Assembly: GCA_007126675.1 (NCBI GenBank)
Contig: SLAU01000279.1
Location: forward strand, 1 to 39,013
Length of the DNA stretch: 39,013 nt
From: Balneolaceae bacterium
GTDB lineage: Bacteria > Bacteroidota > Rhodothermia > Balneolales > Balneolaceae
Direction of reading: 5' to 3'
The stretch's first letter is position 1; every line of letters begins with the position of its first letter. Under the pieces are notes generated by a model. That model saw only the letters and a list, made by a program, of their open reading frames with translations. It was not told where the DNA came from and did not search any database. The position numbers and the translations under genes were made by a program. Below are positions 31,905-39,013 of this stretch, one piece after another.

Positions 31905-33104
31905 ATGGCAAAACTAACCCTGAAAGACGTTAACGAATTCAAAAATAAAACCGTACTGATGCGTGTCGATTTCAATGTTCCCGTGAAAGACGGAGTGATT
32001 TCGGACGACAACCGTATCGTACAGGCACTCGAATCGATCAACTATGTGGTTGAGCGTGGTGCGAAATTAATATTAACCAGCCACCTTGGCCGGCCGGCCG
32101 GTGAGCCGTCGCCGGAGTTCAGCCTGAAACCGGTAGCCGATCACCTTGCAACACTGGTGGATGTACCGGTGCACTTTGCGGAAGACTGCATAGGCGATAA
32201 AGCTGACAGCGTAATTGAAAAAGCCGGGTTTGGCGAAATCGTTCTGCTCGAAAATGTGCGTTTTCATAACGGAGAGAAAAAGAACGATCCTGAATTTGCC
32301 AAAAAACTGGCCAAACATGCCGACCTGTTTGTGAACGATGCATTCGGCAGCAGCCACCGCGCCCATGCTTCCGTGGCGGGTGTAACGGAAGTTCTGCAGC
32401 CATCGGTTTCAGGATTCCTGCTTGAAAAAGAGATCCGCTACCTCGAAGAGAGCGTAAACAACCCGAACCATCCTTTTGTAGCGATACTGGGTGGGGCAAA
32501 AGTGTCCGATAAAATTGGGGTGATCGAAAACCTGCTGGATAAGGTGGATACCATTATAATCGGCGGCGGAATGACCTACACATTCTTCAAGGCAAAAGGT
32601 CTGCCGGTTGGAAACTCACTTGTAGAGGAGGATAAAGTTGACCTGGCGAAGGAACTGCTGCAAAAAGCAGAAAAAGCCGGTGTAAATGTGATGCTGCCTG
32701 TTGACTCGGTTGTTGCTAAAGAGTTCAGCAATGACGCCGAGCACAAAGTGGTGCCGCAGGATGGAATCGAGGATGGCTGGATGGCACTTGATATCGGCCC
32801 CGAGTCGGCCATTGCGTTTGGCAACCAGATCAAAAATGCACGAACCGTACTCTGGAATGGACCGATGGGCGTTTTCGAAATGGAGAACTTTGCAGAGGGC
32901 ACATTCACCGTAGCCAAAGCGCTGGCAGAAGCTACTTCATCGTACGGTGCAACCACCATTATCGGCGGCGGTGATTCCGCATCAGCCATTAAAAAATCGG
33001 GGCTGCAGGATAAAGTATCGCACGTATCCACCGGCGGCGGCGCCAGCCTGGAATACCTGGAAGGGAAAGAACTGCCGGGTGTGGCGGCACTAACGGATAA
33101 ATAA
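31905..33104 (+). CDS. pgk: Phosphoglycerate kinase
   Basis: 399 aa with [16 protein letters not shown] and GGGDSA motifs. Confidence 0.96.
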
Positions 33105-33214
33105 CCGCGGAGGCGCGGAGAGCGCTGAGAGTGGGGTTTTATGAGTAGGACCTGACAGTGTGGTCTGGTGTTTTTCCAGACCTCCTGTAAGCGTCCGGAA
33201 TTTTTTTTAAACCG

Positions 33215-33521
33215 AAAACTAATCTGCGCACACAAGCGTCTCCGCAGTTAATAGAACGCGGATAGACACGGATCGTGCGGATGCTCGCCGATCAAGAAAA
33301 GATAAATATCAGTGAAGATCAGCCTCATCCGCATGATCGGCGTCCCATCAGCCCGTAAATTTTATCACATTCCCTGTGTTACCACAGTGAAAAACAATCA
33401 GCGCCCACTGCGCCTCCGCGGTAAAAAAAACGCGTATCGTGCAGACAATCACCGATCAAGAAAAACAGTGGCTTACGGTCAATTCTTGCGGATATGAAAT
33501 TATTTTACGTATTTATTTATA
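33215..33521 (+). repeat. Repeat R1: ~307-bp non-coding leader upstream of gene A, homologous to 38687-39013
   Basis: It aligns by eye along its whole length with R2 (aaaacYaatctgcg ... gatcgtgcgga ... gatcaagaaaagataaa ... ccgcatgatcggcgt ... aaattattttacgtattt). It is built internally from two related half-units. Confidence 0.85.
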
Positions 33522-33635
33522 CAAGCATACCGCTTTGTCGGTAATGTCTTCTTCAATTTTTATTATTTGTGATGTAAAACAGTTCAGGCATTTTTAACCG
33601 ACGGGCAGGTTAACCTAATCCCACCGGAGGTTATT

Positions 33636-34370
33636 ATGAAAAAATGGTTGATACTCAATTTCTCTCTCTCTCTCTCTCTCCTGATTGTGCTGCCGGTTTT
33701 CGGGCAGATCACGATCAACGATAATGGTAATGTGGCCATAAAAACGGAAAACACGGTGTCCGTTCGTGCCTTAAATGTTGAGTGCAACGGCAATAACAAT
33801 TGTGGACATACTGGTACCAGGTATGGTATATACTCGATAGCGGATGGTGCCTACGGGTCGTACGGTATTCGCGGACATGCTCAGAACGGCTATGGCGGTT
33901 ATGGGGTGTATGGGTCGGCATCCAACAATACAATCAGCTACGCGGGCTATTTTACCGGGGATGTTTATACTACGGGTGATTATCTGACTTCCGATGAACG
34001 ATTCAAGACCAACATTCGCTCCCTCCATGATGAAAATGTGATGGACAAGCTCGGTCAGTTGACCCCGGCCCGTTTTGAATATTTGGGGGCCGGCGAACTG
34101 CGACAGCAGGGTCTGCCTGAATCACACGCCAAAGTGGGAGAACATCTGGGGATACTGGACGGAGAAGTAGAAAACCTATTCCCGGAACTGGTCCGTGATG
34201 TAGTGCATTTTCTCAATGAAAACGACATAGGCAATGGAAACCCGCCCGATACAGTTATTACCAAAGCCGTCAATTACAACGGATTGATTCCCGTGCTAAT
34301 CACCGCAATACAGGAACAGCAGCAAAAAATAGAGGAACTGGAAGCGCGGATTGAAGCGCTGGAACAATAA
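33636..34370 (+). CDS. Gene A: secreted tail-fibre-domain protein with a Gly/Tyr-rich N-domain and a Peptidase S74 intramolecular-chaperone (self-cleaving) C-domain
   Basis: GGAGG lies 5 nt upstream. The signal peptide is MKKWLILNFSLSLSLLIVLPVFG|Q. The protein has YG-rich repeats and YAGYFTGDVYTTGDYLTSDERFKTNI, with Ser119 and Lys124 in S-x4-K spacing. It also has GILDGEVENLFPELV and a C-terminal coiled coil, AIQEQQQKIEELEARIEALEQ. Confidence 0.8.
   Translation: MKKWLILNFSLSLSLLIVLPVFGQITINDNGNVAIKTENTVSVRALNVECNGNNNCGHTGTRYGIYSIADGAYGSYGIRGHAQNGYGGYGVYGSASNNTISYAGYFTGDVYTTGDYLTSDERFKTNIRSLHDENVMDKLGQLTPARFEYLGAGELRQQGLPESHAKVGEHLGILDGEVENLFPELVRDVVHFLNENDIGNGNPPDTVITKAVNYNGLIPVLITAIQEQQQKIEELEARIEALEQ
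33661..33680 (+). repeat. Perfect (TC)10 dinucleotide microsatellite inside the signal-peptide codons of gene A
   Basis: The sequence tctctctctctctctctctc was read directly. It encodes part of FSLSLSL. Confidence 0.95.
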
Positions 34371-34406
34371 TTGAACCGTAATGGATGAATATTCCGGAGG
34401 TATGAT

Positions 34407-35327
34407 ATGATAGCAGAGAAAAAAACAATATTCGGACTAGTTGCAGCCGCAGCCGTTTTGCTTGCGGCCCTGGCGGTTTCCTGCGGCGACGACCCGGTTA
34501 GCGCCGAACCCGAAGATGAGATTGAGCTTGCCGGTACCTCTTGGAAACTTACTTCTGTTGAATCGGTTTCGGACACACTGTTCGACGGCTACGAAAACGG
34601 CATCTGGCAGGTGCCTGAAACCGCGCAGTATTTGCTGGAATTCACCCCGGACAGTTCCGTGTATGCTTTTCTCTACTGCGAAGAATGTCCGGATGGTGAA
34701 GGCAGCCGGTTTGAAGTTGCCGGGGAAGATTCACTTTCCATAAATCTTATCTGCGAATCCGGCTCAGTTTGCCAGAAAAATATTCCGGTCAGGGAGCGTC
34801 TGGAGTCGGTAGTAACCGTTGAGCAGGTGGGAGAAACCCTGAGAGCCGAATACGTTTTTACAGACGATGAGAATGAAGAGTTCCGGGGAAGGATGCATTT
34901 CAGCCGTGCTGAAAATGTGAGGCCGGAGCCGGTGCCTTTTGAAGTATTAAAACAACAATGGCTGGTTAGAAAATGTGGAATAAATACCGGGAACCTGGAA
35001 TTTGATGAAGAGAATGAAAATCTCAGCCGGTTTGAACTGATCATAACCACACAGGAAGAGTTTGACTACTATATAACTTGCAATGAAGAAACTGGAGTAG
35101 ATATGGATGAATATTTCGTGCTTGCCGGGTTAAGCAGTGTTCATCATAGCTGTGTAGATGTTCCAGAACATACGATTTATCTGCTCAATGATATATTGTA
35201 TTATAGTGTTGCGATAAGAGAAGCAGCGTGTGATATGCCGGAGAGTGCACAGTATATTGTAAGCCTTCCAAGGACCTATCAAGATCATCTGATAGAGTTT
35301 AAAGTATTTTGGAGGGTTTGGTTATGA
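34407..35327 (+). CDS. Gene B: Cys-rich lipoprotein with a META-like N-domain and a PrcB-C-like C-domain (domain calls by eye)
   Basis: GGAGG lies 6 nt upstream and the lipobox is LAVSC|GDDP. The LAGTSWKLTSVE motif is typical of META/HslJ domains. The C-terminal half (ELIITTQEEFDYY...VDMDEYFVLAG...IYLLNDILYYSV...AQYIVSLP...IEFKVF) resembles the PrcB_C pattern. Confidence 0.75.
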   Translation: MIAEKKTIFGLVAAAAVLLAALAVSCGDDPVSAEPEDEIELAGTSWKLTSVESVSDTLFDGYENGIWQVPETAQYLLEFTPDSSVYAFLYCEECPDGEGSRFEVAGEDSLSINLICESGSVCQKNIPVRERLESVVTVEQVGETLRAEYVFTDDENEEFRGRMHFSRAENVRPEPVPFEVLKQQWLVRKCGINTGNLEFDEENENLSRFELIITTQEEFDYYITCNEETGVDMDEYFVLAGLSSVHHSCVDVPEHTIYLLNDILYYSVAIREAACDMPESAQYIVSLPRTYQDHLIEFKVFWRVWL

Positions 35328-37570
35328 AATATTGCCTCTTAATGATAGCTTTTCTGATTACAACTTCAACTGTGCTTTCACAGGAAAGCGGGAATTACTA
35401 TTGGTATAACGGTGAGAAAAAATATTTAGATTTAAAAACAGATGAACACTTTATTTTGCTTGATCAATTTATAGATGTAAACACTTTGATAGCTGAATTT
35501 AATATTGAAAGTGATCGAATCGGAGAGATTAAGAAAGCAAACATCGGTTCCTATATGGTTCCTCGTCAATCGGGAATCGAGTTCAATAATAAAGATTATC
35601 ATTTTCTAATCATTTCAGGGGAAGAAAATAATATTAATCTGAATTCTCCAAAAATTTCTTATCATGCGCCTTTTTTTAAGTCGAAATCCGGAGAAAGGGT
35701 TGGTTTGTCGAATCTGTTTTATGTCCGCCTGCATCGTGAAGGTGATATCAAGATACTCGAAGAACTCGCAGAACAGTATCATGTAGATATACTTGGTAAT
35801 AACTATTACATGCCGTTGTGGTACACTCTGGCATCCAACCGAAGCAGTTCCGGGAATGCACTTGAAATGGCCAACATATTTTATGAAAGCGGTTATTTCA
35901 AAGCTGCACATCCGGATTTTATTTTTTTTAATATGATTAATTCATCGACGGTGAGTGATCCGTTTTTTCTCGATCAATGGAATTTAAACAATACCGGTCA
36001 ATATGGAGTAGGAATTCATGGAGCTGATATTCAAATGATTAATGCATGGGAAATCACAGAGGGGAGGGAAGAAATTATTACAGCTGTAAATGATCGTGGT
36101 ATATCCAAAATCCATCCGGATTTACCAAATATACATCCGGTCAGTTTTGACGCGGAAGGCGGCGTAGGCGAACCGGAACCTCAATCATCGAATGATGATC
36201 CGCCTCCGAGCGTTGTACGCGGTCCGCATGGAACCGCGGTGGCCGGTATTATTGGTGCGATGGCAAATAATGAAGAGGGGATTGCAGGTATTGCACCAAA
36301 TGGTATGCTTATGTCAATCAGCTCGAATATGGAAACGTCTTTTGATGGCGTTATGAAATTCGCATCAGCGATTGAATTTGCATGGGAAAATGGTGCATCT
36401 ATAATCAATAACTCTTGGAGCTTTCATCCTGAATTTGCGTTAGATTGTATGGATGAAGCTATAAATAATGCAATCAATCATGGAAGAAATGGCTTAGGAA
36501 CTGTATTGATATTTTCTACAGGTAATAATGATGGGAATTTAAGGTGGCCTTCAAACAACCCGGATGTCATTGCAGTCGGAGCGTCAAGTATGTGTGATGA
36601 GCGAAAATCACCCACTTCGTGTGATACGGAAAGCGCATGGGGAAGCAATTTTGGAACAGGTCTTGATGTCGTGGCCCCGGGTGTGCTAATACCAACAACA
36701 GATAATGCGTTCGAAGGTTATAATGATGAAATTGATCCAATCGAAATTCATATTATCAATAATGGAACTTTGGTATCAGAAGATTATGAAAATACAAGTT
36801 ACACAATTTGGTTTCATGGTACATCTGCAGCAGCACCTCATGTAGCAGGCATCGCCTCTCTGATGTTATCAATCAATGATGATCTGACTTATGATGAAGT
36901 CCGCTATATCATTGAAAGCTCTGCCGAAAAAGTTGGCGGCTATACGTATACAATGGGCGCCGGTGCACGGCCCGATCTTACCTGGAACGAGGAGATGGGA
37001 TATGGACGGGTGAATGCGTATCGTGCGCTTATAGGAACTATTGAGAACCACGGAGCTACACTGGGAATCGAAAAACCCCTGGTTACCCTGCCCCTGTTTG
37101 AGGATATGGACTTCCACGAAGATGTATACCTGGCAAGCGGCTCTACGCTTACGATCGAAGCAAGGGAAAACCCGGTAACATTAACCTCCAATTCCGGTTC
37201 GGTTACCATCGGTAAACCGGCAACGGGAACTACTCAGGCGAAGCCACTGGCCGGCGGCGGGGATGATTCCGGTGGTGATGTAGATGAGATCGGTTCAGAA
37301 ACGCCTCAGAAGATTGCACTTTCTGCCAACTATCCAAATCCTTTCAACCCGGTTACGACTATCCGTTATGAACTTCCTGTAAACAGCAATGTCCGCCTGG
37401 AAGTGTACGACATCCTCGGACGCCGCGTAGCCGTATTGGTGGAAGGGCTAATAGAATCGGGTGCGCATGAAGTAGCATTCGATGCGTCAAACCTTGCCAG
37501 CGGGGTTTACTTATACCGGCTTTCAACCGCCGATTTTGTACAGACACGGCAGATGGTGCTGGTGAAGTAG
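35324..37570 (+). CDS. Gene C: S8-family serine peptidase (subtilase) with an N-terminal propeptide-like region and a T9SS type-A C-terminal sorting domain
   Basis: The ATG at 35324 lies 7 nt after GGAGGG and overlaps the stop of B (ATGA). The signal peptide is MKYCLLMIAFLITTSTVLSQ. The catalytic triad motifs are AVNDRG (Asp codon 36092-36094), HGTAVAGIIGA and GTSAAAPHVAG. The C-terminus NYPNPFNPVTTIRYELP...GVYLYRL...MVLVK is the T9SS sorting domain. Confidence 0.88.
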   Translation: MKYCLLMIAFLITTSTVLSQESGNYYWYNGEKKYLDLKTDEHFILLDQFIDVNTLIAEFNIESDRIGEIKKANIGSYMVPRQSGIEFNNKDYHFLIISGEENNINLNSPKISYHAPFFKSKSGERVGLSNLFYVRLHREGDIKILEELAEQYHVDILGNNYYMPLWYTLASNRSSSGNALEMANIFYESGYFKAAHPDFIFFNMINSSTVSDPFFLDQWNLNNTGQYGVGIHGADIQMINAWEITEGREEIITAVNDRGISKIHPDLPNIHPVSFDAEGGVGEPEPQSSNDDPPPSVVRGPHGTAVAGIIGAMANNEEGIAGIAPNGMLMSISSNMETSFDGVMKFASAIEFAWENGASIINNSWSFHPEFALDCMDEAINNAINHGRNGLGTVLIFSTGNNDGNLRWPSNNPDVIAVGASSMCDERKSPTSCDTESAWGSNFGTGLDVVAPGVLIPTTDNAFEGYNDEIDPIEIHIINNGTLVSEDYENTSYTIWFHGTSAAAPHVAGIASLMLSINDDLTYDEVRYIIESSAEKVGGYTYTMGAGARPDLTWNEEMGYGRVNAYRALIGTIENHGATLGIEKPLVTLPLFEDMDFHEDVYLASGSTLTIEARENPVTLTSNSGSVTIGKPATGTTQAKPLAGGGDDSGGDVDEIGSETPQKIALSANYPNPFNPVTTIRYELPVNSNVRLEVYDILGRRVAVLVEGLIESGAHEVAFDASNLASGVYLYRLSTADFVQTRQMVLVK

Positions 37571-37623
37571 TAGATTTGAAAATTAGTTGATCAGGGAATC
37601 AGGGACCTGTCAGCACCCACCGG

Positions 37624-37660
37624 ATCTGACAGCGTCCCGGGTTCGAATTCAGATTTTTTT
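37624..37660 (+). terminator. Possible weak intrinsic terminator after gene C
   Basis: A 6-bp stem atctga (37624-37629) / tcagat (37649-37654) is followed by a T7 run ending at 37660. The stem is short and the loop is large. Confidence 0.35.
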
Positions 37661-37662
37661 AG

Positions 37663-37722
37663 CAGGAACAGCAGCAAACAATCGAGCAACTGGAAGCGTG
37701 GATTGAAGCGCTGGAACAATAA
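37663..37722 (+). pseudogene. Remnant of the last 19 codons of a gene-A paralogue
   Basis: caggaacagcagcaaacaatcgagcaactggaagcgtggattgaagcgctggaacaataa matches 34311-34370 (QEQQQTIEQLEAWIEALEQ* against QEQQQKIEELEARIEALEQ*). An in-frame TAG lies immediately upstream. Confidence 0.7.
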
Positions 37723-37768
37723 ATCGAACCGAAACGGATTGAATGGAGTAACACTCCGGAGGCCTTCT

Positions 37769-38687
37769 ATGGATGCAGAGAGTAAAACAACAATTGGATT
37801 TGTGGCAGCCGCATCAATCGCACTGATGACGATACTTGTGATTTCCTGCGGGGACGATCCCGTACAGCCGGGCGCAGACCCGATACCGGATCTTGCCGGA
37901 ACCGCCTGGAAACTGACAACCGTTGAATCGATCTCCGACACGTTGTTCGACAGCTACGAAAACGGCACATGGCAGGTGCCCGATGAAGAGCAGTACCTGA
38001 TTGAATTTACGGCAGACAGCTCCCTGTTTGCTTTTCTTTATTGCGAGGAGTGTCCGGATAGTGAAGAGAGCCGTTTTGAAGTTGCCGGTGAGGATTCGGT
38101 TTCTATAAATCTGAACTGTGAATCCCGTTCTGTTTGCCAGAAAAATATACCGGTCAGAGAACGCCTGGAGTCGGTAGTAACCGTTGAGCAGGAAAATGAA
38201 ACCCTGATAGCAGAATACGTTTTTACAGGCGATGAGAGTGAAGAGTTCCGGGGAAGGATGCATTTCAGCCGTGCTCATAATGTGAGACCGGAGTCGGTGC
38301 CTTTTGAAGTATTAAGAGGGCAATGGCCGGTATGGAACTGCGGGTTTAATGCCGGGAATCTGGAATTAGATGATGACAATGAAAACCTTAGCCAGCTTGA
38401 ACTGATTATAACCACACAGGAAGAGTTTGACCACTATATAACCTGCAATGAAGAAACCGAAGTGGACATGGAGGAATACTTTGTGCTTGCCGGTTATAGC
38501 AGGATGCATCATAGCTGTGTCTATATTTCAGGACATACGGTGTATCTGCTTAATGATATATTGTATTATAGTGTTAAGTGAAGCAGCGTGTCACGTTCCG
38601 GAGAGAGCACGTTATATGGTACGTCTTTCCAGGGTGTACCTGGACCATCCGATTGAATTTAAAGTATTTTGGAGGACTTGGATGTAA
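37769..38687 (+). pseudogene. Gene B2: diverged paralogue of lipoprotein B, disrupted by a 5-nt indel with a TGA at 38579-38581
   Basis: GGAGG lies 6 nt upstream of the ATG at 37769 and the lipobox is LVISC|GDDP. B2 is colinear with B throughout. After ...LNDILYYSVK* the homology continues in the +1 frame (EAACHVPERARYMVRLSRVYLDHPIEFKVFWRTWM*) up to 38687. Confidence 0.7.
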
Positions 38688-39013
38688 AAACCAATCTGCG
38701 TCCACAGCGCCTCTGCGGTTAATATAACACGGATAAACACGGATCGTGCGGAGAATCGCTGATCAAGAAAAGATAAAAATCTGTGAAGATCTGTCCCATC
38801 CGCATGATCGGCGTTCTATTAGCCCATAAATTTTATCACATTCCACATCTTACCGTAATAAAACCAATCTGCACCCACAGCGCCTCTGTCCCGTAGGGAT
38901 CCCTTTGGGACGGTTAAAAGAACGGGATCGTGCGGACAATCACCGATCAAGGAAAAACAGTGGTTTACGGTCAATTCTTGCAGAAGTTAAATTATTTTAC
39001 GTATTTGTTCATA
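38687..39013 (+). repeat. Repeat R2: second copy of the R1 leader, truncated by the window end
   Basis: It is colinear with 33215-33521. It contains an extra 22-nt double mini-hairpin, tcccgtaggga tccctttggga (38889-38910). Confidence 0.85.

Follow-up and report, generated by a model that had tools for sequence, protein, structure and literature searches.

The stretch of DNA analysed here, in the following called the window, comprises 39,013 nucleotides of a contig from a Balneolaceae bacterium (SLAU01000279.1), and the element in question is a segment near its right end, positions 37663-38687, in which the tail of one gene and the whole of a second gene are repeated behind a set of three co-directional genes located after pgk. 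The three genes encode a secreted fibre-like protein (gene A), a lipoprotein (gene B) and a subtilase with a sorting domain for type IX secretion (gene C), and the second copy of B is called B2. The setting is core, housekeeping chromosome, with rpoC, transaldolase, proS and pgk in the window, and the array of repeated genes lies between pgk (31905-33104) and a gene for a helix-hairpin-helix protein. Its genes and the parts of the repeated segment are:

33636-34370, plus strand: gene A, secreted fibre-like protein of 244 residues with a Peptidase_S74 intramolecular-chaperone domain
34311-34370, plus strand: A tail, the last 19 codons and stop of A, coiled coil, source copy of the remnant
34407-35327, plus strand: gene B, lipoprotein of 306 residues with two domains
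35324-37570, plus strand: gene C, S8 subtilase of 748 residues with a C-terminal sorting domain for type IX secretion, start codon overlapping the stop codon of B (ATGA)
37596-37659, plus strand: terminator-like hairpin and run of seven T (fold -33 kcal/mol, z-score -3.5)
37663-37722, plus strand: A-tail remnant, 19 codons and TAA without a start codon, an in-frame TAG directly before it
37723-37768, plus strand: spacer with the ribosome-binding site of B2 (GGAGG at 37758-37762), 74% identical to the A-B spacer, with indels
37769-38581, plus strand: open part of B2, 270 codons to a premature TGA at 38579-38581 (from alignment and translation)
38575-38687, plus strand: out-of-frame 3' remainder of B2, 36 codons and TAA, the frame-corrected translation of which aligns with B to the end

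Local alignment pairs positions 34311-35329 with 37663-38689, 827 of the 1005 aligned bases being identical (82%) with several small indels (BLASTN E = 0), and the initial annotation, which had seen the stretch 34311-35327 recur at 37663-38687, was right in this respect. The segment consists of the last 19 codons and stop of A, the A-B spacer, the complete B and 2 nucleotides beyond. A third copy was not found in the 45 kb examined. The window continues in a public contig of a metagenome-assembled genome (GCA_007135305.1, locus L001); the sequences used for comparison are metagenome contigs throughout (NCBI, ENA, JGI, Logan). The left edge of the second copy is found directly after the run of seven T (37653-37659) downstream of C, where the in-frame TAG occupies 37660-37662, and the right edge lies 2 nucleotides beyond the B2 stop codon, a position that corresponds to the ATG of C (35324) in the first copy. 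Both the abrupt start behind the T run, with the TAG before the A remnant, and the end within a few nucleotides of the C start had been described as such before. Retention of the start codon of C by the B2 copy was considered and rejected, the ATG being offset by one base. In two independent sets of runs, of 2012 and of 2019, the stretches 37607-38268 and 38246-39013 are each spanned by a single Logan unitig that shows no differences, and both junctions of the segment are genuine and not assembly artefacts.

The A-tail remnant is located 3' of the S74 domain and contains none of it. It is identical to 34311-34370 in 56 of 60 nucleotides, and of the four differences three change the amino acid (K to T, E to Q, R to W), which would fit a recently identical stretch that lost its coding constraint. 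The remnant and its junction are also present in a contig of a related strain (L007). A small hairpin is observed directly 5' of the ribosome-binding sites of B and B2 (34384-34400; 37744-37762, with GGAGT..ACTCC in B2), and variants of its stem occur in other alleles, the consensus fold being weak and devoid of covariation.

Is B2 still a gene? It has retained a GGAGG, its ATG at 37769 and a lipobox (LVISC), as the initial annotation had pointed out; what had been overlooked is that B2 is not intact but frameshifted. Relative to B, 5 nucleotides are deleted between 38574 and 38575, which shifts the frame and leaves an open reading frame of 270 residues. Identity at the protein level is 73% (222/303) and not the four fifths estimated earlier by eye. 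An intact allele exists in contigs of two other soda-lake runs (X7, X8), which carry TGCGA inserted after 38574, and a further contig (L005) is likewise intact at this site, its surrounding bases being 100% identical to B2. The frameshift is strain-specific and, as the intact allele matches B2 in every base next to the deletion, recent. The frameshifted form is the sole one in several abundant populations (runs X1-X5). Before the lesion B2 was a selected gene for long. In the frame-corrected codon alignment of B and B2 (S = 195, N = 714) dS is 0.67, dN 0.16 and dN/dS 0.24, with similar values in both domains, which shows that the duplication of A-B is old and that B2 was under purifying selection for most of its history. 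In the structural model of the C-terminal domain of B the residues missing from B2 form the last two strands (E282-288 and E295-302), and since the truncation removes two core strands the shortened product is probably non-functional. In addition, the unit to which B2 belongs lacks A beyond the last 19 codons, an upstream region of its own and a protease, and begins right after the C terminator; following a terminator-like hairpin and containing no copy of the upstream region of A, the segment appears to be without a promoter. Most likely B2 no longer functions as a gene in this strain.

Protein B resolves into a META-like N-domain, residues ~27-173, and a C-domain, residues ~174-306, which belongs to an uncharacterised family. 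It has no match in Pfam or NCBIfam, and a profile search of 1.8 billion representative proteins returned 70 relatives that identify B as a two-domain fusion. Stand-alone relatives exist for both domains, and most relatives of the C-domain are stand-alone lipoproteins of 150-190 residues, in ~60 clusters. B and B2 are predicted lipoproteins by reading of their sequences, with the lipobox LAVSC in B and a cysteine (Cys26) that is invariant in two alignments. To the META family (PF03724) B has no match even at E <= 10, and one relative (P0011) has a weak precomputed match. A fold search with the full-length protein found only weak matches to lipocalin-like barrels. The C-domain (34923-35324) is modelled with a predicted local distance difference test score (pLDDT) of 92.8, and Foldseek found no fold match for the model in the PDB (best E = 0.24). 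Kinship with PrcB is unsupported, as B and ten relatives have no match to any PrcB family. Species-representative genomes and JGI metagenome contigs were scanned with the B-family alignment and yielded no relatives; hardly any further homologues came from a second word-indexed search, in which a wide alignment was used. An S8 peptidase gene is found directly 3' of the relative of the B C-domain in three of the five neighbourhoods checked (L010, L012-L014, L096), in L010 with an overlap of 4 nucleotides between the lipoprotein and S8 genes, and the distant relatives L012-L014 have the same order of S74 protein, small lipoprotein and S8 peptidase with sorting domain. From this position of B relatives upstream of S8 peptidases and from the shared gene order, A-B-C emerges as a conserved, uncharacterised operon type.

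Protein A matches the Peptidase_S74 family PF13884 with 34.8 bits (gathering cut-off 22) at residues 119-187. In endosialidase-type chaperones the autocleavage motif is a serine with a lysine five residues downstream. Such a pair is found in A within SDERFK (residues 119-124), invariant in five of five aligned A variants, and autocleavage is predicted from sequence. No phage genes were found near A. Protein C matches PF00082 (E = 8e-37) and the sorting-domain models PF18962 (37.6, cut-off 27) and TIGR04183 (45.6, cut-off 23), has its catalytic motifs at 257 (NDRGI), 302 (HGT) and 499 (GTSAAAP) together with the oxyanion asparagine motif, and scores 80.2 bits against the PrtP equivalog NF033595, below the cut-off of 300. 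A scan with protein C returned only loci sharing the type IX sorting domain, none of them with a B-like gene; these matches merely suggest an affinity to Balneolales, Rhodothermales or Calditrichota-like bacteria. Between strains the N-terminal ~160 residues of C (35324-35800) are 35-42% identical and the C-terminal 200 residues 100% identical. The N-terminal region of C and the C-domain of B vary together, a hint that suggests a cognate interaction of the two.

The upstream region of A, called U, belongs to the repeated material as well. It had escaped the initial annotation that a repeat of U and the head of A abuts B2 and that a (CT)n tract is present in the leader of A.

33213-33635, plus strand: U, copy 1, the ~420-nucleotide upstream region of A with an internal ~170-nucleotide repeat, unit separator and leader
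38687-39013, plus strand: U', copy 2, abutting B2 directly and extending past the end of the window, 77-78% identical to 33213-33700
33662-33679, plus strand: (CT)9 tract in the signal-peptide codons of A (LSLSLS)

The upstream region and the first ~21 codons of A (33213-33700) recur from 38687 onwards (to L001 14787), the opposite end of the island contains a third, partial copy of U (L001 18380-18444 and 18625-18661), and U also separates the units in L096, an array described below. Beyond the window, in L001, U' leads into an A-like leader with (CT)12 that is fused to a 719-residue reprolysin-like metalloprotease with a type IX sorting domain, followed by a lipoprotein gene and then a gene for a beta-barrel protein. 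The metalloprotease gene carries the signal peptide of A, the leader behaving like a portable module, and the 199-residue lipoprotein 3' of the metalloprotease gene was considered as a relative of B and rejected. The module of metalloprotease, lipoprotein and beta-barrel protein genes (~4 kb, L001 14415-18380) is flanked by direct repeats of U and is missing in L005 (3238-3371), as would be expected if recombination between copies of U had led to its gain or loss. Also noted was an element of ~119 nucleotides resembling repetitive extragenic palindromes (REP), directly 3' of the pgk stop codon (33099-33216), which is repeated in inverted orientation at L001 18552-18656 after the stop codon of the convergent gene at the opposite end, the pair thus bracketing the entire island of ~9.9 kb; the C terminator (~37600-37640) has the core of this element in common. 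An Rfam scan of the region gave no credible match.

The (CT)n tract differs in length between otherwise similar sequences, and with the length the reading frame of the leader changes:

(CT)n of A in the window: 9 units, in frame with the first ATG at 33636 (MKKWLIL...)
(CT)n of A in L001, L002 and L003, otherwise near-identical public contigs: 10 units, the first frame closed by a stop and a second ATG, 8 nucleotides downstream, coming into frame (MVDT...)
(CT)n of the metalloprotease gene: 12 units, second ATG in frame
(CT)n of L005: 13 units, out of frame from either ATG
(CT)n of L008: 16 units, second ATG in frame

Contigs with (CT)9 and with (CT)10 are both present in each of four runs, and assemblies break at the tract. 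The tract thus has the features of a contingency gene, a repeat inside the reading frame with a unit that is not a multiple of three and a frame-moving length polymorphism within populations, and is likely a candidate for slipped-strand phase switching of A.

Where does the second A-B unit come from? Contigs of related strains reveal rearranged arrays at the same locus. L008 and L001 share 99.2% identity over 9.2 kb, ending abruptly at the (CT)n tract, beyond which the body of A in L008 cannot be aligned and its B is represented by a protein that consists only of the N-domain (41% identity). L007 contains the C terminator, the A-tail remnant and the start of B2 nearly base for base as in the window, and compared with L001 its own B-C is mosaic, with 91%, then 66% identity, then a part that cannot be aligned and then 87%. 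A tandem array is seen in L096 (1-7010), a conspecific contig of a sample in which an exact copy of the locus studied here is present as well. The first unit of this array consists of A, a B that has only the C-domain, C, the terminator and U; in the second unit the leader of A is fused by a deletion to a remnant of a lipoprotein tail, followed by a B that has only the N-domain, a subtilase with a different N-terminus, the terminator and U. This second unit is truncated differently from the one in the window, and the start of a third unit is present. In L096 the lipoprotein that has only the C-domain is paired with a C-like protease, and the one that has only the N-domain with a protease differing in its pro-region; the B of the window resembles a fusion of these two lipoprotein types. 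The C terminator sequence follows the C genes in L007 and L096 as well. L005 contains the 3' end of a protease, its own upstream region of 550 nucleotides and a complete A-B pair, which ends in a B2-type 3' end with the same B2/U junction and the right flank of the island, and L097 has yet another pairing and arrangement. The origin in a tandem array and the decay of units are directly supported, as both are seen in related strains. Of the two explanations offered initially, the decay of a tandem A-B(-C) array was borne out by the array of L096, the A-B pair of L005 with its B2-type end and the frameshift in B2.

The sequence of the window copy is also present in an NCBI metagenome-assembled genome and in ENA, JGI and Logan assemblies. 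At positions 34159 (A>C) and 35970 (T>C) every public contig aligned to the window differs from the base of the window, so that the window derives from an assembly or strain slightly apart from the public runs.

The second explanation, exchange of B-type cassettes by recombination through the conserved A tail and the B/C junction, could be followed in the pattern of conservation. Between L001 and L008 the A genes are ~55% identical throughout and 98% identical in 34312-34351, within the A tail. For the L008 allele the proportion of differing synonymous sites (pS) is 0.09 in the A tail and 0.77 in the adjoining S74 domain (Fisher p = 2e-5), a conservation of the A tail for which constraint on the protein cannot account; relative to the distant relative L012 the synonymous sites of the tail are not conserved (pS 0.90). 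A second conserved block is found inside B, at the junction of its two domains:

34857-34931 (copy 2: 38222-38296), plus strand: linker at the domain junction of B, 69 of 75 nucleotides identical between the copies

This linker holds the longest exact match between the two copies (37 nucleotides), and a mosaic switch in L005 and breaks of Logan unitigs are located there as well. The pS of B codons 151-175 is 0.07, whereas values of 0.5-0.7 are found over most of the N-terminal half and of 0.15-0.64 further downstream. The leader of A is a further short block that is nearly identical at synonymous sites, with saturated modules between the blocks. Mosaicism is seen in the L005 allele, which over ~1,200 nucleotides, from the (CT)n tract to the B domain junction, is 100% identical to the first A-B copy of the window, continues after the junction as a third type (95% to L006) and then becomes 94-100% identical to B2. 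At the B/C junction no conserved block was seen, and the variable segment runs on into the N-terminal domain of C. The proposal of exchange through conserved blocks is supported at the level of the population by the synonymous island of the A tail and the B mosaics, but not for the B/C junction. None of the outcomes that the initial annotation had named as speaking against the recombination model was obtained: dN/dS is 0.24, structural variants were found, and cassettes of a similar kind are present in related strains.

Taken together, the segment 37663-38687 is probably a decayed second A-B unit of a strain-variable tandem array, the modules of which are shuffled by homologous recombination via conserved linkers. 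The units of this array comprise the S74 fibre-like protein (A), the lipoprotein (B) and the type IX-exported subtilase (C). General homologous recombination and gene conversion probably take place between units of one genome and between strains, with crossovers in the conserved linkers (A leader, A tail, B junction) and in the repeated element U, and modules would thereby be created, shuffled and deleted. The A-tail remnant would then mark the boundary of a crossover or conversion and not the end of a random deletion, and B2 would persist as a potential substrate for recombination. Both explanations of the initial annotation would apply in part, decay to this copy in this strain and exchange to the locus in the population. 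Several points weigh against this interpretation. No contig has a complete A immediately before a B2-type 5' end, the step in which a second A was deleted being inferred; L005 and L096 are short metagenome contigs, and the 100% stretch of L005 could be an assembly chimera of co-occurring strains; the island at the B junction is modest, with ~1/15 synonymous sites changed and p ~0.03 after correction (own calculation); and the synonymous conservation of the A tail could reflect a function of the DNA or RNA, for example in the control of B translation, which would lead to its retention without recombination. Furthermore, neither the B2-C joint, for which the initial annotation had proposed to look, nor another alternative joint was seen in the populations carrying the strain, in 31-mer unitigs that are unable to span repeats. 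'Joints' listed when public contigs were aligned to the window are superimposed repeats and not B2-C joints. Switching within one clone was not seen, and no dedicated recombination machinery was found.

An alternative to the shuffled array is a programmed system of antigenic variation, in which B2 serves as silent donor that is copied non-reciprocally into A-B-C via the boxes of the A tail and the B junction, with the (CT)n tract as additional on/off switch. In favour of this, B2 is apparently promoter-less behind a terminator-like hairpin and without the upstream region of A; conserved boxes flank the variable modules, one B allele is a mosaic of parts of B1 and B2, and the length of (CT)n varies within single samples. 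However, there is a single extra copy, which is frameshifted here, the mosaic is observed at the second position and not at the expression site, variant joints within populations are unseen (again in 31-mer unitigs unable to span repeats), no recombinase gene or other specialised element was found in the window, and a dN/dS of 0.24 shows that B2 evolved as an expressed and selected gene and not as a silent store. The programmed system is considered unlikely. A low probability is also assigned to plain duplication and decay, with the A tail conserved as a cis element for B (an internal promoter, translational coupling or an RNA structure) and kept by B2 for this reason. In line with such an element, the tail is conserved across highly divergent A alleles, the block lies 36-46 nucleotides upstream of the B start in every allele, and a small hairpin accompanies the ribosome-binding site in all of them. 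Yet the consensus fold of tail, spacer and B start is weak (-8.9 kcal/mol) without compensatory changes, a promoter scan lists no site in 34300-34410, the tail of L012 is not conserved at synonymous sites (pS 0.90), and the second island in B, the mosaics and the structural variants would be left unexplained.

B2 could also be imagined to work still, as a 270-residue lipoprotein made by read-through from C or by ribosomal frameshifting and serving, for example, the downstream metalloprotease. The intact ribosome-binding site, ATG and lipobox, the purifying selection in the past and the fact that populations X1-X5 contain the frameshifted form alone would be in line with this idea, but the loss of two core strands of a confidently modelled domain, the recent lesion with flanking bases 100% identical to the intact allele and the strong hairpin with T run upstream render it very improbable; the single metatranscriptome examined has no coverage of the organism, even of pgk. 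That the repeat is a collapsed or chimeric assembly product deserves hardly any credence. All sequences are metagenomic and unitigs break at repeats, but the junctions at 37663 and 38687 lie inside single unitigs and are identical in the runs of 2012 and 2019, NCBI, ENA, JGI and Logan assemblies agree, and 18% divergence between the copies precludes collapse. Going beyond the favoured array of recombining and decaying units, a two-layer system of variation could tentatively be proposed, although its probability is rated as rather low. In such a system U and the leader with the (CT)n switch would form a portable head placed before different protease operons, the linkers would be dedicated crossover boxes between expressed and silent units, and B2 would be a stored cassette; the parts exchanged may be fibre bodies, lipoprotein domains and protease pro-domains.

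Several described systems share single traits with the locus. The Hop/Bab genes of Helicobacter pylori (oipA, babA/babB) carry CT repeats near their 5' end, in the codons of the signal sequence, at which slipped-strand mispairing changes the reading frame (PMC10564699), and paralogues recombine within the genome to chimeric genes, leading to antigenic variation (PMC3444412, PMC4552749). The leader CT repeat and the mosaic B alleles are reminiscent of these genes, and the CT repeat of oipA is the closest described parallel (PMC10564699). However, the proteins are unrelated, the repeat heads here a multi-gene operon of a free-living soda-lake bacterium, and the copies are in tandem and not dispersed; moreover, switching and conversion between paralogues are described in H. 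pylori, whereas here events within a clone are unobserved and the variation is known from sequence comparison. In Neisseria, CTCTT repeats in the leader of opa genes act as a translational switch, and the pilE/pilS system contains promoter-less partial copies in which conserved boxes flank variable segments. The coding leader repeat and the partial, apparently promoter-less copy with conserved boxes, of which there is one behind a terminator-like hairpin, resemble this arrangement, although the single extra copy is frameshifted here and a specialised initiation element was not found, none having been searched for.

Orphan toxin-immunity modules 3' of cdiA, in contact-dependent inhibition (CDI), and of rhs genes consist of a 3' fragment of the upstream gene, which retains the variable toxin tip, and of a partner gene that is intact. 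Similarly, the segment studied here is a 3' gene fragment followed by a partner gene after the main operon, and the retained homology could be a handle for recombination; in contrast, it is the conserved coiled-coil tail of 19 codons alone that is kept, and no match to a toxin or immunity family was found at the locus in Pfam or NCBIfam. The dentilisin operon prcB-prcA-prtP of Treponema denticola links lipoprotein gene(s) translationally to a surface S8 subtilase (PMC8167434). The linkage of lipoprotein and subtilase is shared and C matches the PrtP model weakly, but B has no PrcB match, C reaches 80 bits as against 300, and the locus here has type IX export and an S74 fibre protein as its first gene. 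Finally, A has the domain and the Ser-Lys motif of the Peptidase_S74 chaperones of endosialidase type in phage tailspikes and tail fibres but is small, chromosomal, equipped with a signal peptide and part of a protease operon.

Remnants of duplications are common, and by itself such a finding is nothing unusual, its context being more remarkable. Within a single uncultured species from soda lakes, strains with flanks that are 99% identical differ at this locus as much as distant phyla do. The combination of a dinucleotide switch in a leader with modular mosaicism via linkers is known mainly from host-adapted pathogens. Moreover, the locus defines a conserved and uncharacterised three-gene set of S74 fibre protein, small lipoprotein and type IX secreted subtilase. 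Should phages, predators or competitors be the driving force of the variation, the locus would offer a tractable case for the evolution of contingency loci outside pathogens.

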